Shown one piece after another: positions 1 through 46,950 of a stretch of 64,000 nt of DNA. Numbering within the stretch: the stretch's first letter is position 1; each line of letters starts with the position of its first letter. This stretch comes from Clostridiales bacterium (lineage in GTDB: Bacteria > Bacillota > Clostridia > Christensenellales > CAG-138). The DNA is taken from contig SFDB01000001.1 in the NCBI GenBank assembly GCA_004558825.1, positions 65,479-129,478 of the forward strand, in the 5' to 3' direction. Under the pieces are notes generated by a model that saw only the letters and a list, made by a program, of their open reading frames with translations, did not search any database and was not told the origin of the DNA. The position numbers and the translations under genes were made by a program.

Positions 1-557
1 TTCTCCGCTGGGTATACCTCGTTGACGAGACCGATACGTTTCGCTTCCTGAGCATCGATTTGCGCTCCCGTCAATATAAGCTGCATTGCATAAGGAACAC
101 CAATGACCCTGGGCAGTCTTTGAGTTCCGCCAAAGCCGGGCGTTATGCCAAGCCCCGTCTCGGGCTGACCCATTTTTGCCTTTTCGCTCGCAAGGCGTAT
201 GTCGCAGCAAAGCGCGAGCTCACATCCGCCGCCGAGCGCATAACCGTTAATCGCAGCAATCACCGGTATTTCGAGTCCTTCAAGGCGCGACAAGGCCGCT
301 TGACCCTTCATGCAAAACTCTTTTGCTTCCTGTGCGCTGAGCTCGGACATCTCCGCAATATCCGCTCCCGCCACAAAAGCCTTTCCCGCGCCTGTTACAA
401 CAAGAACACGCACATCGGCGTCGGCCTCTATCATGTCGGACGCCTCACAAAGCTCCCGAAGCACGTCGCTGTTAAGCGCATTGAAGGCCTTAGGGCGGTT
501 TATCGTCAGTATGCCGATGCTATTTCGTTTTTCAAATGTCACATGCTCCATGCTCAT
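1..557 (-). CDS. crt: Enoyl-CoA hydratase / crotonase (short-chain 3-hydroxyacyl-CoA dehydratase), C-terminus off window
   Basis: Not in the ORF track because it runs off the window. Own translation from ATG at 557: MSMEHVTFEKRNSIGILTINRPKAFNALN..VVTGAGKAFVAGADIAEM..NGYALGGGCELALCCDIR..GLGITPGFGGTQRLPR. These are crotonase-fold motifs. It lies 20 nt downstream of kamE. Confidence 0.85.
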   Translation of the reverse strand, partial: MSMEHVTFEKRNSIGILTINRPKAFNALNSDVLRELCEASDMIEADADVRVLVVTGAGKAFVAGADIAEMSELSAQEAKEFCMKGQAALSRLEGLEIPVIAAINGYALGGGCELALCCDIRLASEKAKMGQPETGLGITPGFGGTQRLPRVIGVPYAMQLILTGAQIDAQEAKRIGLVNEVYPAE

Positions 558-577
558 CGTGTTCCTTTCAGGGAGAT

Positions 578-1366
578 TTATTTTTTGCCGCGTTTAACCA
601 TTTCGGTTATCGCAAACGTCGCAACGTCCTCGGCATATTTTTGCTGTCCGAAGCCTGCATCGTAGCCAAGCTCCTTCGCAAGCTCGTGCGTTATGCGCGC
701 TCCGCCGCACACGAGTATGAACCGGTCACGAAGCCCTTCAGCCTCGAGAAGCTCCACAAGCTCCGTAAGATTTTTGATGTGTACATCCTTCTGCGTGACC
801 GTTTGTGATACGAGCAGAACGTCTGCATTCAGCTCTACGGCCTTTTTTATGAACTCCTCGTTCGTGACCTGCGCGCCAAGGTTGTATGCCTCTATCATCT
901 CGAAGCGTTCAAGTCCGTAATGGCCCGCAAAGCCTTTTCTGTTCATTATGGCGTCTATGCCCACCGTATGCGCATCTGTACCTGTTGACGCTCCCACCAT
1001 TATTACCTTACGCCCGATGTTCTCCCGTATGTATTCATCGCAGGCGTGCATATCCATCGTCTCTTCTTCAACGGTCTCGACGTGTATATTCTCGTAATCG
1101 ACCGTATGAGCGCACGAGCCGTACACGACGTAAAACGTGAACTCTTTATCGAGCGGCTTTGCAAGCGCAACGTTGGGCTCGGAAATTCCCATTTTTTTTG
1201 CAAGGAGCCTTGCCGCCTCGGTTCCTCGCTCGTCGTCTTTTACGGGAAGCGTAAAAGAAAGCTGCACCTTGCCGTCGTTCATCGTATCGCCATATGCCTT
1301 CAGCTTTGAAAGGTCAAGCGTTTTATCAAAATCCTGCTTGCTTGTATTGTAAAGTCCGGAGCTCAT
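578..1366 (-). CDS. kamE: Lysine 5,6-aminomutase beta subunit (B12-binding)
   Basis: 262 aa, the length I recall for characterised KamE. Cobalamin DxHxxG motif (TDAHTVG). 4-nt overlap with kamD upstream. Confidence 0.9.
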   Translation of the reverse strand: MSSGLYNTSKQDFDKTLDLSKLKAYGDTMNDGKVQLSFTLPVKDDERGTEAARLLAKKMGISEPNVALAKPLDKEFTFYVVYGSCAHTVDYENIHVETVEEETMDMHACDEYIRENIGRKVIMVGASTGTDAHTVGIDAIMNRKGFAGHYGLERFEMIEAYNLGAQVTNEEFIKKAVELNADVLLVSQTVTQKDVHIKNLTELVELLEAEGLRDRFILVCGGARITHELAKELGYDAGFGQQKYAEDVATFAITEMVKRGKK

Positions 1367-2922
1367 CCGTTAACGCCCCCTTTCATAAGCTCTACGAACG
1401 GGTTGAAGTAATCGTCGGACTTTACGACGACTCCGCTCAAGCCCTTGCCGCCTTCGCGCGAACGCTTTATATCGGCAAATATTCCCTTTTCAAGCGTTGC
1501 AAAAAGACCCATATGCTCTATCTCGCCAAGAAGCTTAGCGGCCTTTGCCAAAACGTCGTTTGCGCGCGTCTCCATTATGCCGCCTTCCTTGAACGAAATA
1601 TCGTCGCCCAGATCCTTCATCGTCCTGAATATATACTGCGCGTTTTCAATAGACAGCGCTCTGTCGCTCATAAACGGCGTGTGTATAGCCTCCGTGAGCA
1701 TTCCGAGAAGATGGAGTTTCTGCCCCGTCAGTATCGTGACCATGTTAAACAGCGCGTCCTGAACGTGTCCCCTGAATATGTTGCCCGTCATGAACTTCGT
1801 CGGCGGCATGTATTTCAAGGGCGCCTTCGGGAATATCTGGCGCGCCATCTGCGCCTGCGCCAATTCATAGAGGAAGCCGTTCTCAACATCGGGCGATATT
1901 TCGAACGCATGGCCCAAGCCCTGCTGTTCCTCGGGAAGCCCCGCGCAAAGAGCGAACTGCTCGTTAAGGAACTGCGAAGCAAGAACCGTATGCGCCTCTT
2001 CAACCGCGTCGGCCGTGGTAAGGTAATTATCCTCGCCCGTGTTAATTATTACGCCCGCGAACGAGTTGATAACGCGTGAGAAATACTGGTCGACTATCGT
2101 GCGCTGCATGTTGATGTCACGGAATAATATGCCATAAAGCGCATCGTTAAGCATTACGTCAAGCCTTTCAAGCGCGCCCATCGCCGCTATTTCAGGCATA
2201 CAAAGACCCGAACAATAGTTGCAGAGCCGAATGTAGCGCTTTTCTTCGCGTCCAACCTCGTCGAGCGCTTCGCGCATGAGCCTGAAGTTCTCCTGCGTCG
2301 CGTATGTTCCGCCAAAGCCTTCCGTAGTAGCGCCATAGGGAACATAATCAAGAAGGCTTTGACCCGTCGTGCGAATTACGGCTATTATATCCGCGCCCTG
2401 CTTCGCTGCGGCCTTCGCCTGGGTTATATCCTCGTAGATGTTTCCCGTCGCAACGATTACATAAAGATACGGACCTTCCTTGTCGCCGTACTCTGACAAG
2501 AACTCGTTGCGTTTCGCAGCATTCCCGCGTATGCGCTCTACAGTCGCCATCGCTACCGGCATTATCTTGGCGCGTATCTCTTCGTTTGTTTGCGGCGCAA
2601 TGGCCGCGAGATCAAGCTCGCACTTATCTATTTTTTCGGCAATTTCCTGCGGCGAAAGCCCTGTCGCAGCCATCGCATTTCCTATGTAAAACGCGGCGCC
2701 GCCCGAAAGTATGCCCCTGTCCGTCAAATGGTTCACTACGACATTGGGCAGCGGCACCTCAAAATCGTTTACGCCGTCAATACCGAGCAGTCTGCATACG
2801 GCGCGCTCGACTGTCACAGTCGTATGAATATCAATAAACGCCTGCGTATCTTCAGCAATATGCTTTGCTGACTGCCTTGCTCCGTCCACAAGCGCCTTGT
2901 TTAGATTAAGCTTGTTCTGCAT
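1363..2922 (-). CDS. kamD: Lysine 5,6-aminomutase alpha subunit
   Basis: 519 aa TIM-barrel-type large subunit. Typical KamD N-terminus (LNLNKALVDGARQSAKHIAEDTQAFID). GGGGG RBS. Coupled to kamE. Confidence 0.9.
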   Translation of the reverse strand: MQNKLNLNKALVDGARQSAKHIAEDTQAFIDIHTTVTVERAVCRLLGIDGVNDFEVPLPNVVVNHLTDRGILSGGAAFYIGNAMAATGLSPQEIAEKIDKCELDLAAIAPQTNEEIRAKIMPVAMATVERIRGNAAKRNEFLSEYGDKEGPYLYVIVATGNIYEDITQAKAAAKQGADIIAVIRTTGQSLLDYVPYGATTEGFGGTYATQENFRLMREALDEVGREEKRYIRLCNYCSGLCMPEIAAMGALERLDVMLNDALYGILFRDINMQRTIVDQYFSRVINSFAGVIINTGEDNYLTTADAVEEAHTVLASQFLNEQFALCAGLPEEQQGLGHAFEISPDVENGFLYELAQAQMARQIFPKAPLKYMPPTKFMTGNIFRGHVQDALFNMVTILTGQKLHLLGMLTEAIHTPFMSDRALSIENAQYIFRTMKDLGDDISFKEGGIMETRANDVLAKAAKLLGEIEHMGLFATLEKGIFADIKRSREGGKGLSGVVVKSDDYFNPFVELMKGGVNG

Positions 2923-2964
2923 CGATTCACCCCCTGTTAAGTTCTTATCGATTAAGTCACTCGG

Positions 2965-4224
2965 TCAAGCGTTCGCCGAATGGCCCCTCTTTGTTCTTGC
3001 AAGATCCTTGGGCTCCATGCTGAGCTGCTGCCCCTGCTCAAGGCCGGCCACACCGATGAGTTCTGCATTCTTTTCTTTGCGGCAAACCTCACAGTTGCAC
3101 GTCTCCTCATAGTGCGTCGGCTCGGTATAGGTTGTGATGACGCCCTCAAAGTTTCTGAGTATTACGCGCCCCGGCGACTGACTTATGACATAGTTGGGCA
3201 TTACAGGCGTTTTGCCGCCGCCGCCCGGCGCGTCTACGACGAAAGTAGGTACGGCATAGCCCGACGTATGACCGCGCAAAGCTTCGATTATTTCGATTCC
3301 CTTAGACACAGGGGTACGGAAATGCTCGAGTCCGTACGAAAGATCGCACTGGTAGATGTAGTAGGGGCGTACCCTTATCTTGACAAGCTCCTGAACGAGC
3401 TTTTTCATCACATGCACGCAGTCGTTTACGCCCGCGAGAAGCACGCTCTGGTTGCCGAGAGGTATTCCCGCATTTGCAAGCTTTGCGCACGCCGCCGCCG
3501 ATTCCTCGGTGATCTCGTTGGGGTGATTGAAGTGCGTGTTGAGCCAAATAGGATGATACTTTTTAAGCATGTTGCAAAGATCGTCCGTTATCCTCTGCGG
3601 CATGACGACGGGCGTACGAGTTCCGAGGCGGACTATCTCGACGTGTGGTATCTTTCTAAGCTCGGAAATGATGTATTCAAGCACATTGTCGTTGAGCATG
3701 AGCACATCGCCGCCCGAAAGCAGCACGTCGCGCACTTCCGGATGGTTGCGCACATATTCGATGCAGCCGTCTATCTGTTTCATGGGAACTGCTGCGTCAT
3801 GCTGGCCCGCGAAACGCCTGCGCGTGCAGTGACGGCAGTACATCGAGCACTGGTCTGTCGTCAGGAGCAGAACGCGGTCGGGATACCTGTGCGTGAGCCC
3901 CGGAACCGGCGAGTCCGTATCTTCATGGAGCGGATCGAGCAGATCGGCGCATGCGCGGTGGAGCTCGAGCGCTGTCGGAATCGCCTGCCGGCGAACGGGA
4001 TCATGCGGATCATCGGGGTTAATGAGCGAAAGGTAGTACGGCGTTATCGCCATGCGCAGAGTGCCGAGGCACTTAGCGATGCCGTCCTCCTCTTCGGGGG
4101 TTAGCTTGATATACTTCTTGAGTTCATCAAGCGTCTCTATTCTATGCGTTACCTGCCATATCCAGTCGTTCCACTGTTCATCCGGAATATCGCGGAAAAG
4201 GCCGTATTGCCTGCTTTTATTCAT
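2965..4224 (-). CDS. kamA: Lysine 2,3-aminomutase (radical SAM, PLP)
   Basis: Radical-SAM CxxxCxxC (CSMYCRHCTRR) and KamA-type C-terminal Cys cluster (CNCEVC). Start moved to MNKSRQYG at 4224, which has an AAGGAGA RBS. The track ORF extends to 4278. Confidence 0.92.
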   Translation of the reverse strand: MNKSRQYGLFRDIPDEQWNDWIWQVTHRIETLDELKKYIKLTPEEEDGIAKCLGTLRMAITPYYLSLINPDDPHDPVRRQAIPTALELHRACADLLDPLHEDTDSPVPGLTHRYPDRVLLLTTDQCSMYCRHCTRRRFAGQHDAAVPMKQIDGCIEYVRNHPEVRDVLLSGGDVLMLNDNVLEYIISELRKIPHVEIVRLGTRTPVVMPQRITDDLCNMLKKYHPIWLNTHFNHPNEITEESAAACAKLANAGIPLGNQSVLLAGVNDCVHVMKKLVQELVKIRVRPYYIYQCDLSYGLEHFRTPVSKGIEIIEALRGHTSGYAVPTFVVDAPGGGGKTPVMPNYVISQSPGRVILRNFEGVITTYTEPTHYEETCNCEVCRKEKNAELIGVAGLEQGQQLSMEPKDLARTKRGHSANA

Positions 4225-4307
4225 TGCTGGTTCTCCTTTTTTTGCAATGCGTTTTAAGAGAAACCCGCGGGCGGTCACACCGCCCGCAGGTTTTATAGAT
4301 ACTTCAA

Positions 4308-5348
4308 TTAAACGTATTTCTCGTCAAAGAGCTTGCGAAGCTTCTCGTTCTCGCGGAGAACGTTGAGCGTAATTTCGGCATGGTTCTTTGTGTAGCCGTT
4401 GCCAACTATCATCGTGACGTCTTTGCCGACGCCTTCCGCGCCGAGAGCCGCCTTTGTGAAGCTCGTAGCCATTGAGAAGAAGTATACGATACCGTCGTCG
4501 CGTACGGGCAGTATAGCTGACATTTCGCAATTTTCCACGTTTACGCAGCATATGGAGAGATCATACTCCTTGCCGTCGTTCGCTTCAAGCGCCTTCTCAA
4601 GAACAGCGACGGGCTCTGTTGCGCTGGCAACGATTACCTTGTTGTATACGCCGAGCTCCTCAAGCGCAGCAACCTGTGCCGGATTCCTTACGACGCCGAC
4701 TACGTTACCCTTCGGGCCTACGGCCTTCATTGCTTCATAGCCGCAGAGAACGCCCGACTTGCCGTTTGCGCCGAGAATAAGTACGCTGTCGCCTTCCTTC
4801 GGAAGCTTGCGCGCCTGTGCGGGAGCGCCGGCCACGTCAAGAGCCGCAAGCGCAAGGGCTTCGCTCATATCGTCGGGAAGCTTTGCATAAATGCCGCTCT
4901 CGAAAAGAACAGCCTTGCCTTCGATATCAACGCGGTCAATGTCCTTATGGATTGCCTTGATTTTGTCAATCCTCAAAGGAGTCATCGAAAGCGATACGAG
5001 AGAGGCAATCTTATCGCCGACCTTGAGGTCTCTGTCCTTGAGATCCTCACCGATGTAAGCAACTTTGCCAATAAACATTCCGCCTGAGCCCGTTACGGGG
5101 TTCTGCTGCTTGCCGCGCTCCGCAACGATGCCGAGAATCATTTCACCTATCTTTTTCTCGTCGCCGCCGCACGCCTCTTCAATCTGCGTAAACGACGCGG
5201 AATCGATATTGAGCGAAATAACGTCGCAGATAATCTCGTTGGAATAGAGCTTATCCATGTCGTTGTCGATTTTGTAAGCCGCCTGCGTAAGAACGCCCTT
5301 GGGCTCTATAACTCTGTGCGTTCCGTACTTATTTCCCTTCATTGCCAT
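4308..5348 (-). CDS. kdd: 3,5-diaminohexanoate dehydrogenase
   Basis: 346 aa, Rossmann GANGKSG motif. Position between kce and kamA in a lysine-fermentation operon. N-terminus typical of Kdd as I recall it. Confidence 0.82.
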   Translation of the reverse strand: MAMKGNKYGTHRVIEPKGVLTQAAYKIDNDMDKLYSNEIICDVISLNIDSASFTQIEEACGGDEKKIGEMILGIVAERGKQQNPVTGSGGMFIGKVAYIGEDLKDRDLKVGDKIASLVSLSMTPLRIDKIKAIHKDIDRVDIEGKAVLFESGIYAKLPDDMSEALALAALDVAGAPAQARKLPKEGDSVLILGANGKSGVLCGYEAMKAVGPKGNVVGVVRNPAQVAALEELGVYNKVIVASATEPVAVLEKALEANDGKEYDLSICCVNVENCEMSAILPVRDDGIVYFFSMATSFTKAALGAEGVGKDVTMIVGNGYTKNHAEITLNVLRENEKLRKLFDEKYV

Positions 5349-5379
5349 ATGTTTTTACCTCCGAAAATTATTTGTATAT

Positions 5380-6207
5380 TTACTTTCTCGGTGCAAGCCC
5401 GAGTATTTCCCTCGCTTCGTCCGGCGTGGCTATTTCACGGCCGAATTCCTTCGCAAGGCGCACCACCTTCTCAACAAGCTCCGCGTTGCTCTTCGCAAGA
5501 ACGCCCTTTGAAAGGTATACGTTGTCTTCAAATCCGACGCGCACATGGCCGCCCATCAAAATGCCCATAACAGCCATCGGGAATTCATATCTGCCTACGC
5601 CCGCCACGGTCCATGTCGAGCCCTGCGGTATGCTTTCCTTCATGAAAATCAGGTCACGCGGTTCGCCGCTTATGCCGCCGTTTACGCCCATAACGAAGTC
5701 AAAATGCATGGGAGCCTTTATGTAACCCTTCTTGCAAAGGCGGTTCGCCATGTCGATCATGCCCTTGTCAAACACCTCAACTTCGGGCTTTATTCCCCGG
5801 GCAATCATTTTTTCGCCAAAATCCTTTATCATATTCTCGGTGTTGACAAATATGTCGTCGCCGCCGAAATTGCATGTGCCGCAGTCAAGCGTCGCCATTT
5901 CGGGCATAAGCGTTATCGGCTGGAGCCTTTCATCGTTGCTCATGCCGACAGCGCCGCCTGTTGAGGGCTGTATTATGACGTCGGGACACTTTGCGCGAAT
6001 AGCCTCGAAGCATTCACGGAAACGCTCCACATCCTGCGTAGGCGTACCGTCGTCATATCTCACATGGAGGTGGATTATCGATGCGCCGGCCTTATATGCG
6101 CCGTAAGCCTCGTTCGCTATCTCTTCGACCGTATAAGGAACGGCGGGATTGTGCTCCTTCGTTACTTCTGCGCCGCAGATGCAGGCGGTGATTATAAGCT
6201 TATCCAT
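5380..6207 (-). CDS. kce: 3-keto-5-aminohexanoate cleavage enzyme
   Basis: About 275 aa BKACE/DUF849-type TIM barrel (MDKLIITACICGAEVTKEHNPAVPYT). Start moved to 6207, which removes the overlap with kal. Confidence 0.87.
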   Translation of the reverse strand: MDKLIITACICGAEVTKEHNPAVPYTVEEIANEAYGAYKAGASIIHLHVRYDDGTPTQDVERFRECFEAIRAKCPDVIIQPSTGGAVGMSNDERLQPITLMPEMATLDCGTCNFGGDDIFVNTENMIKDFGEKMIARGIKPEVEVFDKGMIDMANRLCKKGYIKAPMHFDFVMGVNGGISGEPRDLIFMKESIPQGSTWTVAGVGRYEFPMAVMGILMGGHVRVGFEDNVYLSKGVLAKSNAELVEKVVRLAKEFGREIATPDEAREILGLAPRK

Positions 6208-6214
6208 CGCCCGC

Positions 6215-6604
6215 TCACTTCCTCTGCTTGTCCTTTGGAACAACGCAGGTGCCGCTTGCTCTGCAGACGATTATGGGCGTCTCAAGCACGTCGCACGCTG
6301 AATCGTTTATGTCGGGGCGCGGCGCGATGACCTTTCTTGCCTCAAACACCATCTTTCGTGATGTGTTGCCGCAGGAAACTATCTCGCCTGTTGCCTCGAT
6401 ATAATCGCCGGCAAATACGGGAGCCATAAACTCCACCATATCGTAGGCCTTAAAAAGACCCTCGTCGCCATCGTTGAGTATAAGAAGCTCCGTGGCCACG
6501 TCGCCGAAAAGCTGGAGCATTCTTGCACCGTCAACAAGGTTTCCGCCGTAATGGGCGTCATGCGCGCTCATACGAACTCTGATTGTTGATTTCATAGATA
6601 TCAT
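6215..6604 (-). CDS. kal: 3-aminobutyryl-CoA ammonia-lyase (hot-dog fold)
   Basis: 129 aa. First gene after the lysine riboswitch. Size and context match Kal of the lysine fermentation pathway. Confidence 0.8.
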
Positions 6605-6690
6605 ACCTCCGTTTTATTTGATCACTCGATCGGCGTATAAAAATCAGCGCGCCGCCAATATGGATAGCATATCGATAGCGCACCGACCTA

Positions 6691-6739
6691 CAAACAAAAG
6701 GCTATTGACGCACGGCTATAAAAGCCCGTGGTCAATAGC
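6691..6739 (-). terminator. Intrinsic terminator forming the riboswitch expression platform
   Basis: RNA GCUAUUGAC-CACGGGCUUUUAUAGCCGUGC-GUCAAUAGC followed by CUUUUGUUUG. There is a 9-bp outer stem and an inner CACGG/CCGUG stem. The 5' arm overlaps the aptamer P1 3' strand. Confidence 0.7.
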
Positions 6740-6905
6740 TCTCCATCCATACGGACGACAGTTACAGCGCACTGAGCGCTGTACCCAAGCACGGGGCTTC
6801 AAGCCATGCCCCCGCGCTTTCGGCGATTCGCCATTCAATGCCGCCATCGCACGCTTTAATGCTTATCATACGGCATTTACCTAGGATATCGCGCCTCTAT
6901 TCGAG
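6734..6905 (-). promoter_or_regulatory. Lysine riboswitch (L-box) aptamer
   Basis: The minus-strand RNA carries conserved L-box blocks in order: AUAGAGGCGCG, AUCGCCGAAAG, GUAACUGUCG, AUGGAGAGCUAUU. It sits in the 5' leader of the kal-kce-kdd-kamADE operon. Confidence 0.8.
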
Positions 6906-6923
6906 TTATATCGTTGTGACATT

Positions 6924-6953
6924 ATTATATTATGCAACCGCGCGCCGTGTCAA
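6924..6953 (-). promoter_or_regulatory. Sigma-A type promoter of the lysine operon
   Basis: Minus strand has TTGACA (6953-6948), an 18-nt spacer and TATAAT (6929-6924). It lies about 20 nt upstream of the riboswitch P1. Confidence 0.6.
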
Positions 6954-7016
6954 CACAAAAACGGGCCGCAAAAGGCGCAAAATGTCTATATTTGTCTGTT
7001 AACCACCGCTTATATA

Positions 7017-7025
7017 TGGTATAAT
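7017..7025 (+). promoter_or_regulatory. Extended -10 promoter element (TGgTATAAT)
   Basis: TGGTATAAT lies 30 nt upstream of the ATG at 7055. No good -35 at standard spacing. Confidence 0.4.
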
Positions 7026-7054
7026 TCCATCATATTTTTGGGGAAGGTTCGCTA

Positions 7055-7612
7055 ATGGAAGCTATATTCAAAAACAATACTCCGCTTGACGCTGACACGA
7101 TGTTCGAGCTTAACTGGTTCTACATTTCCCTCAACGCGCGAGGCACAGCGCTTAAAAGGGTCGCTTCATCGATTTGCGCCGTCATCTTATGCGGCGCAAG
7201 CGTGCTTTGGGCGGTAAAAAGCGGTGCATGGACGCTCTGTGTTCCGGTATTTTTAGCAGGCGCACTCATAGGCGCTGTGCCGTTCATACAAAAGATGCGC
7301 GCAAAATCGCAATTCAAGCGCAATCTCAAGGGCAAGTTCGACATAGGCTACATGAACGAGTTCACGTTCTGCAGAAGCGATTTTTCAGTCAGAAATTCGC
7401 AGTCATCCGTGTCGTCCGATTATCGCGCAGTGAAGCGTTGGTATGAAACAGGACGCTATTTTTTCCTCTTCATCGACGAAAAGAAGGCGTTCATGATAGA
7501 TAAGCGCCGCTTCACGAAGGGCAGTGCAATGGATTTCCGCGCGTTTCTGCACGAAAAATGCGCCGACGCCTATAGAAGCGGCAAGCCCTCCACTCGGCCG
7601 AAAAAGGCTTGA
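7055..7612 (+). CDS. Hypothetical membrane protein (YcxB-like: two TM helices plus a C-terminal domain)
   Basis: 185 aa. Two hydrophobic helices (residues about 35-80) are followed by a soluble domain. GGGGAAGG RBS. Family assignment is from memory only. Confidence 0.4.
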   Translation: MEAIFKNNTPLDADTMFELNWFYISLNARGTALKRVASSICAVILCGASVLWAVKSGAWTLCVPVFLAGALIGAVPFIQKMRAKSQFKRNLKGKFDIGYMNEFTFCRSDFSVRNSQSSVSSDYRAVKRWYETGRYFFLFIDEKKAFMIDKRRFTKGSAMDFRAFLHEKCADAYRSGKPSTRPKKA

Positions 7613-46123: not shown

Positions 46124-46200
46124 TGGTACCCCCTCAGGGACTCGAACCCTGGACACCCTGATTAAGAGTCAGGTGCTCTAGCCAACTGAGCTAAGGAGGC
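46124..46200 (-). tRNA. tRNA-Lys(CTT)
   Basis: Cloverleaf by hand. Anticodon arm CCUGA-CUCUUAA-UCAGG, T-arm GGUUCGAGUCC, encoded CCA. Confidence 0.9.
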
Positions 46201-46290
46201 ACGTCATTTAGGAAGCATTCTGCCGTTAATTCAAAGGCTCATCGCCGCATCGATTTCTTCGCGCGGCTTCGATTCCCCGCTTTCGCTTCC

Positions 46291-46324
46291 AAACTAAAGC
46301 CCATAATTCTTATGGGCTTTAGTT
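46291..46324 (-). terminator. Perfect hairpin between tRNA-Gly(TCC) and tRNA-Lys(CTT)
   Basis: AAACUAAAGCCCAUAA-GAA-UUAUGGGCUUUAGUUU, a 16-bp perfect stem whose 3' arm ends in a U-rich run. Confidence 0.5.
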
Positions 46325-46398
46325 TGGAGCGGGTGATGGGACTCGAACCCACTATCTCAGCTTGGAAGGCTAATGTGTTACCATTACACTACACCCGC
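46325..46398 (-). tRNA. tRNA-Gly(TCC)
   Basis: GCGGGUGUAGUGUAAUGGUAACAC.., anticodon loop CUUCCAA, encoded CCA. Confidence 0.92.
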
Positions 46399-46424
46399 AA
46401 ATACTTGCCCTATATTAAACTGTT

Positions 46425-46500
46425 TGGAGCGGGAGACGGGGCTCGAACCCGCCACCTCCGCCTTGGCAAGGCGGCGCTCTACCAAATGAGCTACTCCCGC
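46425..46500 (-). tRNA. tRNA-Gly(GCC)
   Basis: GCGGGAGUAGCUCAUUUGGUAGAGC.., anticodon loop UUGCCAA, encoded CCA. Confidence 0.92.
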
Positions 46501-46513
46501 ATATTGGGTGCTT

Positions 46514-46598
46514 TGGTGCGGGCGAAGAGACTCGAACTCACACGCCTCGCGGCACCGGAACCTAAATCCGGCGCGTCTGCCAATTCCGCCACGCCCGC
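46514..46598 (-). tRNA. tRNA-Leu(TAG)
   Basis: GCGGGCGUGGCGGAAUUGGCAGAC.., anticodon loop UUUAGGU, long variable arm, encoded CCA. Confidence 0.9.
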
Positions 46599-46611
46599 AC
46601 ATAAATAACGT

Positions 46612-46687
46612 TGGTGACCCGTCGGAGATTCGAACTCCGGACCCTTTGATTAAAAGTCAAATGCTCTACCGGCTGAGCTAACGGGTC
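46612..46687 (-). tRNA. tRNA-Lys(TTT)
   Basis: GACCCGUUAGCUCAGCCGGUAGAGC.., anticodon loop CUUUUAA, encoded CCA. Confidence 0.92.
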
Positions 46688-46690
46688 ATA

Positions 46691-46765
46691 TGGCTGGGGT
46701 GGCAGGATTCGAACCTACGAATGCGGGAGTCAAAGTCCCGTGCCTTACCGCTTGGCGACACCCCA
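46691..46765 (-). tRNA. tRNA-Gln(TTG)
   Basis: UGGGGUGUCGCCAAGCGGUAAGGC.., anticodon loop CUUUGAC, encoded CCA. Confidence 0.92.
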
Positions 46766-46787
46766 AGGACCTCTCCACCAAGAAAAA

Positions 46788-46865
46788 TGGGGTGGGTAGT
46801 GGGGCTCGAACCCACGACCTCCAGAGCCACAATCTGGCGCTCTAGCCAACTGAACTATACCCACC
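46788..46865 (-). tRNA. tRNA-His(GTG)
   Basis: Extra 5' G(-1) then GUGGGUAUAGUUCAGUUGG.., anticodon loop UUGUGGC, encoded CCA. Confidence 0.9.
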
Positions 46866-46873
46866 ACGAAACC

Positions 46874-46950
<77 letters not shown>

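Follow-up and report, generated by a model that had tools for sequence, protein, structure and literature searches.

The pbuE (ydhL) adenine riboswitch of Bacillus subtilis is an experimentally studied ON switch. For the lysine riboswitches (L-boxes) that precede lysine-catabolic genes, the ON logic is a prediction of comparative genomics (Rodionov 2003, cited in Barrick & Breaker 2007, PMC2258182), and the lines of the latter paper that deal with these elements describe L-boxes that bury pieces of terminator stems on ligand binding. The L-boxes located before kal/kce of C. sticklandii, F. nucleatum and Thermoanaerobacter are presented as positively regulated in section 13 of Mukherjee 2017 (PMC5584792), which cites a review on this point. 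According to the first-pass annotation of the DNA analysed here, activating L-boxes were proposed by comparative genomics only, and the corresponding passages of PMC2258182 and PMC5584792 do give predictions; a search of the full-text literature returned no bench test of a lysine ON riboswitch. Among other architectures, tandem ('pseudo-cooperative') riboswitches consist of two complete aptamer-plus-terminator units, with 14 double lysine riboswitches on record (PMC9481103), and singlet glycine riboswitches keep 'ghost aptamers' (PMC5066625).

Here we examined the leader of a lysine-fermentation operon in a stretch of 64,000 nucleotides of a Clostridiales bacterium (the window, whose coordinates are used throughout). 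The explanation towards which we lean, by a modest measure, is that of a lysine-activated transcriptional riboswitch in which one sensor gates two terminators, T1 and T2, in series. The gene names proposed for the operon in the first-pass annotation (Kal, Kce, Kdd, lysine 2,3-aminomutase and the alpha and beta subunits of lysine 5,6-aminomutase) were right, all of them corresponding to NCBIfam equivalogs with scores above the cut-offs. The coding features, with the regulated operon spanning 1..6595, are as follows:

6595-6215, reverse strand: kal (NCBIfam equivalog)
6243-5380, reverse strand: kce (NCBIfam equivalog)
5348-4308, reverse strand: kdd (NCBIfam equivalog)
4278-2965, reverse strand: kamA (NCBIfam equivalog)
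2922-1363, reverse strand: kamD (NCBIfam equivalog)
1366-578, reverse strand: kamE (NCBIfam equivalog)
From 557 past the window edge, reverse strand: crotonase gene, after kamE
6593..6610, reverse strand: ribosome-binding site GGAGG (6610-6606) and probable kal start codon ATG (6595-6593), from the sequence and the NCBIfam Kal profile

The longest kal reading frame begins with an ATG at 6604, just 1 nt past the GGAGG, and the NCBIfam Kal profile starts at residue 4 of this longer frame. The ATG at 6595 is the likelier start because it has a normal spacing from the ribosome-binding site and coincides with the start of the profile. The closest relatives of this Kal protein belong to uncultured gut and rumen Clostridia labelled Christensenella or Christensenellales, so that the organism probably falls there as well. 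Upstream of the operon lie a divergent YcxB-like gene (7055-7612, forward strand), a gene for an M19 membrane dipeptidase (8670-7744, reverse strand) and that for RNase Y (10364-8814, reverse strand), and a dipeptidase encoded beside a lysine-fermentation operon may provide lysine from peptides. Elsewhere in the window eight tRNA genes stand in a row (46127-46950, reverse strand), each scoring 50-74 bits against RF00005.

The region between the operon and its divergent neighbour contains the promoter and the sensor:

6924..6953, reverse strand: sigma-70-type promoter, TTGACA 6953-6948, 18-nt spacer, TATAAT 6929-6924 (12 of 12 consensus matches)
6728..6907, reverse strand: lysine riboswitch aptamer (L-box, RF00168) with helices P1-P5 (cmscan)
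6897..6904, reverse strand: segment A, the P1 5' strand, UCGAAUAG (cmscan alignment and pair list)
6732..6748, reverse strand: segment B, closing strand copy 1, GGAUGGAGAGCUAUUGA (sequence, cmscan and pair list)

This promoter is the sole promoter-like site in 6300-7400, its first base being the position (6953) at which the first-pass annotation had placed the edge of the element, and transcription is expected to start near 6917. The L-box is thus flanked by the promoter at 6953-6924 and the kal start at 6595, on the same strand as this lysine-related gene. A comparison with RF00168 had been proposed as a check of the L-box assignment, and our cmscan search against Rfam 15 gave a match at 6907..6728 on the reverse strand that covers the full model (positions 1-182) with 69.8 bits against a gathering score of 30 (E = 3.7e-16), this being the sole riboswitch match in the window. 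The whole 1.73-Mb genome, which is 97% complete, contains one RF00168 match, the one before kal, and the genes for lysine synthesis and uptake in this organism are therefore not under L-box control.

The cmscan alignment contains the five helices P1-P5 and all the core blocks (AGAGG.GC, CCGAA, ACUGUC and GGAG.GCUA), and the conserved blocks that had been quoted from the leader are in place, namely AGAGGCGC at 6898-6891, CGCCGAAAG at 6824-6816, AACUGUC at 6763-6757 and UGGAGAGCUAUU at 6745-6734. Segment B is made up of the P5 3' strand (GGAUG, 6748-6744), J5/1 (GAGAG, 6743-6739) and the P1 3' strand (CUAUUGA, 6738-6732). The last of these is the CUAUU(GA) strand of the earlier reading, and it pairs with the 5' strand at 6904-6897 through U6904-A6732, C6903-G6733, A6901-U6734, A6900-U6735, U6899-A6736, A6898-U6737 and G6897-C6738, with G6902 bulged.

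The first hairpin that could compete with this helix overlaps the 3' end of the aptamer:

6691..6743, reverse strand: terminator T1, hairpin 6743-6698 (46 nt) with U-rich tail CUUUUGUUUG at 6700-6691 (RNAfold-based search)

Terminators were called as a hairpin followed by a U-run in an RNAfold-based search, since a simple terminator scan missed T1. The 9-bp stem described earlier, GCUAUUGAC (6739-6731) paired with GUCAAUAGC (6709-6701) and followed by the U-rich tail, does exist and constitutes the outer part of a longer hairpin whose inner stem is CACGG(G)CU / AGCCGUG. The hairpin has a folding energy of -25.3 kcal/mol (z = -5.9), and none of 200 shuffled sequences folds as well. Its 5' arm (6743-6731) holds J5/1 together with the P1 3' strand, all seven nucleotides of which (6738-6732) lie inside the arm as had been claimed, and no antiterminator was found between P1 and T1. 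P1 and T1 both need 6738-6732 and are hence mutually exclusive, in agreement with the wiring proposed in the first-pass annotation. Constrained folding of the transcript up to 6691, also suggested there, gave -74.1 kcal/mol for the P1 state against -94.1 kcal/mol for the T1 state, these and the fold energies below being nearest-neighbour values with the ligand and the tertiary contacts outside the model. Because the T1 state is 20 kcal/mol more stable, a relation also seen in other ON switches under kinetic control, the default of this leader is termination. The anatomy of this first step can be read directly in the leader, and the response to lysine is what we infer from it: P1 locked by lysine very probably leads to read-through at T1, which would make the element a direct ON switch.

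It could be argued that the element does not activate at all, and that it works as an OFF switch, has lost its function or senses a ligand other than lysine, as cmscan flagged several non-standard pairs in P2. We consider this highly improbable: the score of the aptamer is over twice the gathering value, its core blocks are all intact, and the lack of an antiterminator between P1 and T1 leaves OFF logic without a structural basis. Furthermore, the L-box is linked to kal across phyla, and an OFF switch on a lysine-degrading operon would be physiologically senseless.

The first-pass annotation had ended the leader at 6691. T1 does lie there, but the leader extends further, as a second terminator follows at 6689-6641:

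6637..6689, reverse strand: terminator T2, hairpin 6689-6641 (RNAfold-based search)
6672..6688, reverse strand: segment D, putative copy 2 of the closing strand, GGUCGGUGCGCUAUCGA (17-nt matrix and alignment with 22 other kal leaders)

The 5' arm of T2 contains D, its 3' arm is CAUAUUGGCGGCGCGCUGAU and its U-run (UUUUUAU) begins at 6643, upstream of the ribosome-binding site at 6610. The hairpin has a folding energy of -26.5 kcal/mol (z = -5.2), and the simple terminator scan reported its inner sub-hairpin (6659-6643) only. The leader therefore presents two terminators in series, each with a U-run. T2 is as strong as T1 and stands between T1 and the ribosome-binding site, so that relieving T1 alone would not turn the operon on. 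The ON interpretation is in consequence supported but incomplete, and the simple model needs to be extended to take T2 into account.

Segment D (6688-6672) resembles the 3' end of the aptamer (GGAUGGAGAGCUAUUGA, 6748-6732), being composed of a P5-3'-like GGUCG, a J5/1-like GUGCG and a P1-3'-like CUAUCGA. No second complete RF00168 aptamer was found in the leader or in the genome, and D is a 17-nt match to the aptamer 3' end. We scored this resemblance with a 17-position weight matrix (consensus UUAUGGAGCGCUAUUGA, 18 bits), for which 118 L-boxes supplied their true 3' ends, scanning each leader from 25 nt past the true copy up to the start codon. D of the window reaches 8.9 bits, above the 99th percentile of shuffled leaders (7.3 bits), and is the weakest copy among the 23 leaders that have one (see below). 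It shows a U-U mismatch against the P5 5' strand, its pairing with A needs a bulged A, and its C6685 stands opposite G6756, a P5 position at which other leaders have A.

To place this leader in context we fetched 161 Kal loci, the counts being taken from 80 species-genome loci and 80 metagenome loci. An L-box stands just before kal, on the same strand, in 40 of the 80 genome loci (cmscan) and in about 45 of the 80 metagenome loci (nhmmer), and this linkage spans phyla. Removal of duplicates left 80 non-redundant kal leaders, most of which have the direct ON wiring in common. In those that are not of the Clostridium type described below, the first terminator begins 12-17 nt before the aptamer 3' end, which places J5/1 and the P1 3' strand inside the terminator. 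The contrast set consisted of 40 L-boxes found in 401 genomes belonging to the same order, with coordinates from cmsearch because an nhmmer profile made from kal-linked aptamers missed 18 of the 40. Thirty-eight of these L-boxes show the usual OFF layout and are followed by asd or by lipoprotein or transporter-like genes; the other two precede kal and are of the ON type. Genomes of the same family also have L-boxes before lipoprotein or transporter-like genes (L162-L166 and L168).

A second 17-nt copy scoring above the 99th percentile of shuffles (7.3 bits) is present in 23 of the 80 kal leaders, most of these copies having 14-24 bits, on a par with the true copies (median 20.3). The 38 non-kal leaders yielded three weak matches, situated in terminator 3' arms or near the ribosome-binding site. 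About 19 of the 23 leaders have D in a second strong terminator followed by a U-run, where it is part of the 5' arm, and in one clade (L008, L082, L083 and L145) it is outside any canonical terminator. With the exception of L146, no leader has related inner stems in T1 and T2, and the similarity between the two modules is hence not due to recent duplication in most lineages. The repeat in L146 (leader positions about 172-310) covers both closing strand and terminator, with 30 of 38 aligned positions identical, inner stem included, and from the alignment this duplication looks recent. This near-exact repeat indicates that a module of closing strand plus terminator can arise by local tandem duplication. 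On a tree of the aptamers, to be taken as indicative because it was built on about 180 nt, two-terminator leaders are clustered yet mixed with single-terminator ones, requiring 11 parsimony changes against 20 with shuffled labels.

These data bear on a simpler explanation, according to which only T1 is controlled by lysine, and T2 with D has decayed from a former second riboswitch in tandem, or from a duplicate of the T1 module, and acts as a constitutive partial attenuator that lowers expression. The complete double lysine riboswitches already known (14 cases, PMC9481103), the block duplication in L146, the repeated gain or loss of D implied by the 11 changes on the tree and the degeneracy of the copy in the window, the greatest among all the copies, would all fit such a history. 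An unregulated terminator of -26.5 kcal/mol with a U-run would, however, cripple expression and should decay, whereas the hairpin and its U-run persist in about 19 leaders despite fully diverged inner stems. Moreover, a hairpin has no need of the 17-nt motif, since its 3' arm could co-vary with any 5' arm, and yet D keeps the core guanines and an AUG that is outside the T2 stem; as shown below, D also tracks the P5 5' strand of its own leader. We regard a single lysine checkpoint as unlikely, and favour the reading in which T2 too responds to lysine.

Other types of kal leader were found among the relatives. A second complete ON-type L-box lies between kal and kce in L008 (2966-3143), in L082, L083, L085 and L089 (about 1650-1845) and in L084 and L097; being additional to the one before kal, it is predicted to give kce and the later genes a lysine checkpoint of their own. 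In the Clostridium-type leaders (L010, L011, L013, L014, L015, L021, L022, L025, L027, L032, L042, L074, L092, L102 and L108) the hairpin that competes with P1 has no U-run, and a separate short terminator, whose 5' arm resembles GAGCRCU of J5/1, follows 20-40 nt further on. As to how lysine reaches the terminator, these leaders fit neither the direct ON model nor the two-terminator model. In the Fusobacterium-type leaders (L056, L071, L117, L137, L140, L148 and L150) the segment before the U-run, for example GUAUAUACCUCUAUUUUUUAU in L056, has 14 nt of complementarity to the 5' end of the leader, AUAAAAAAUAGAGG, which comprises the P1 5' strand and the AGAGG core, and the terminating helix may here use the 5' rather than the 3' strand of P1.

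If T2 were unregulated it would hold the operon off, and something must consequently hold D. The possible partners of D are the 3' arm of T2 (segment E), the 3' arm of T1 (segment C, GUCAAUAGC) and the aptamer core (segment A plus the P5 5' strand). In the B. subtilis L-box core, G193 pairs with G39 and G195 with A38, and position 194 is not conserved (PMC3082890). D keeps both of these J5/1 guanines (G193 and G195 in B. subtilis numbering), which pair with the AGAGG core beside the ligand, and the position between them varies. It also keeps AUG or GUG, usually outside the T2 stem, and neither this triplet nor the guanines are needed for pairing with E or with C.

At 5.11 of 6 positions the bases upstream of D pair, in register, with the P5 5' strand of the same leader, a value equal to that of the true P5 3' strand, and this pairing is better in cognate than in non-cognate leaders (p about 2e-5, from a permutation that, like the others reported here, ignores shared ancestry, the P5/D covariation coming mostly from two clades of GAUG and CAUG types). 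D and copy 1 differ at 33 positions, at 21 of which D still pairs, about 12 being expected by chance. The energy of the A:D duplex is also leader-specific, although the signal is modest (-4.71 against -3.87 kcal/mol, p = 0.014), and on average the duplex is slightly better than that of A with copy 1 (-4.42). For these tests the P5 5' strand was set by hand in L020 and L143, and L138, which is without its 5' end, was excluded from those involving the A strand. The C:B duplex is leader-specific (p < 0.0002), while the C:D duplex gave no leader-specific signal (p = 0.42). The cognate test of A:B gave no signal either (p = 0.47) because P1 is almost invariant, and P1 covariation can thus be used neither way.

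Folding of the transcript of the window up to 6668, just before the 3' arm of T2, yielded T1 plus A:D as the minimum-energy fold, A:D consisting of UCGA-AUAG with CUAUCGA (7 bp, one bulged A). In the constrained folds at T2, the states with a closed aptamer reached -105.7 (T1 + A:D), -102.2 (P1 + T2) and -85.0 kcal/mol (P1 + C:D), and the ligand-free state at this decision point (T1 + T2) reached -121.9.

A relay of antitermination could also hold D. Here P1, held by lysine, would leave C free, and C would pair with D (GCUAUCGAU) and block T2, a chain of four helices (A:B / B:C / C:D / D:E) that amounts to a classical attenuator plus one link. Such a relay needs no strand exchange on the aptamer, both C and D are transcribed ahead of the T2 3' arm, and the two segments are complementary in every leader, their duplex having an energy of -10 kcal/mol on average and, in the window, 8 pairs with one mismatch. 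That complementarity is nonetheless limited to the shared CUAUUG core and, unlike those of C:B and A:D, bears no leader-specific signal. In the window the alternatives to P1 + C:D are better by about 17-21 kcal/mol, the inner stem of T2 would provide the 3' arm with a toehold to displace C, and the conserved J5/1 guanines and P5-like AUG of D, which cannot pair with C, are left unexplained. We consider the relay improbable, somewhat more so than a single checkpoint. The core guanines, the signals in the pairing with P5 and A, and the fold energies favour instead the re-closure of the aptamer on D.

Taking these results together, we propose the following sequence of events. In the absence of lysine, segment B (J5/1 and the P1 3' strand) would pair with segment C to form T1, and transcription would stop near 6691. 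When lysine is bound, P1 (A:B) would stay locked during the passage of the polymerase over T1, preventing its formation. Once the polymerase has moved past T1, the very stable T1 hairpin could take B, and the same aptamer core (A, P2-P4 and the P5 5' strand) would then re-close on D, leaving the T1 hairpin inserted behind P5. Lysine would lock this second closure as well, keeping D from the T2 3' arm, whereas transcripts leaking past T1 without lysine would stop at T2. The expected outcome is a lower basal level and a steeper response to lysine without a second aptamer. The second step is drawn from the comparative data, which suggest that T2 is probably controlled by lysine through D; that the core re-closes on D to achieve this is close to an even call, falling slightly short of it. 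For the model to work, B must give way to D before the polymerase has added more than about 50 nt, since a copy 1 that remained locked would leave D free and T2 would form. Adopting a cautious view, we put forward only tentatively the more general notion of one lysine aptamer core that can close with either of two 3' strands, each of them joined to an intrinsic terminator of its own. Such a single-aptamer, dual-platform riboswitch, whose sensor would be interrogated twice, copy 1 serving at T1 and copy 2 subsequently at T2, is an idea to which we give somewhat less than even credence.

A lysine ON riboswitch, if real, would provide a useful natural lysine-inducible part and would explain how gut and rumen anaerobes turn on the fermentation of lysine to butyrate and acetate. 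The dual closure, if true, would represent an economical path to low leak and a sharp response, giving tandem-like behaviour (squared suppression of leak and a steeper response) for about 60 extra nucleotides. It would recur in about a quarter of kal-linked L-boxes and offer a natural example of a ligand-binding core that exchanges strands in a programmed manner while the RNA is being transcribed. A design with one aptamer and two closing strands was not found in the reviews of tandem riboswitch architectures.

As a plain ON switch, the kal leader is a further member of the predicted type, and what it adds is the repeated closing strand and the second terminator. It shares with the predicted ON L-boxes (C. 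sticklandii kal-kce, F. nucleatum kal and Thermoanaerobacter tengcongensis) the aptamer family, the class of downstream gene (kal, kce, kam) and the burial of part of a terminator stem on ligand binding, but the descriptions of those elements in the relevant passages of PMC2258182 and PMC5584792 contain one terminator, whereas here a second terminator repeats the closing strand. Like the canonical OFF L-boxes of B. subtilis lysC and T. maritima asd, and like the 38 non-kal members of our contrast set, it has this aptamer and a switching centred on P1. The OFF elements differ in having an antiterminator between P1 and the terminator, and a downstream P1-3'-like sequence is found in them in the 3' arm of the terminator, by the U-run, and not in the 5' arm. 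The likeness to pbuE is that the 3' strand of P1 competes directly with the 5' arm of a terminator that is thermodynamically favoured, which implies that control must be kinetic and co-transcriptional; pbuE differs in its purine aptamer with a three-way junction, its single terminator and the lack of a repeated closing strand. The ghost aptamers of glycine riboswitches resemble D in being a fragment of a second aptamer beside a complete one, proposed to be functional, although the glycine ghost supplies tertiary contacts while the fragment in the kal leader would take the place of the closing strand and has a terminator of its own attached to it. Finally, tandem riboswitches likewise place two terminators in series under the same ligand, and a lower leak and a steeper dose-response are expected of them, as we predict here. 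The difference is that the kal leader has one aptamer, its second unit being 17-21 nt plus a terminator that would borrow the core of the first.
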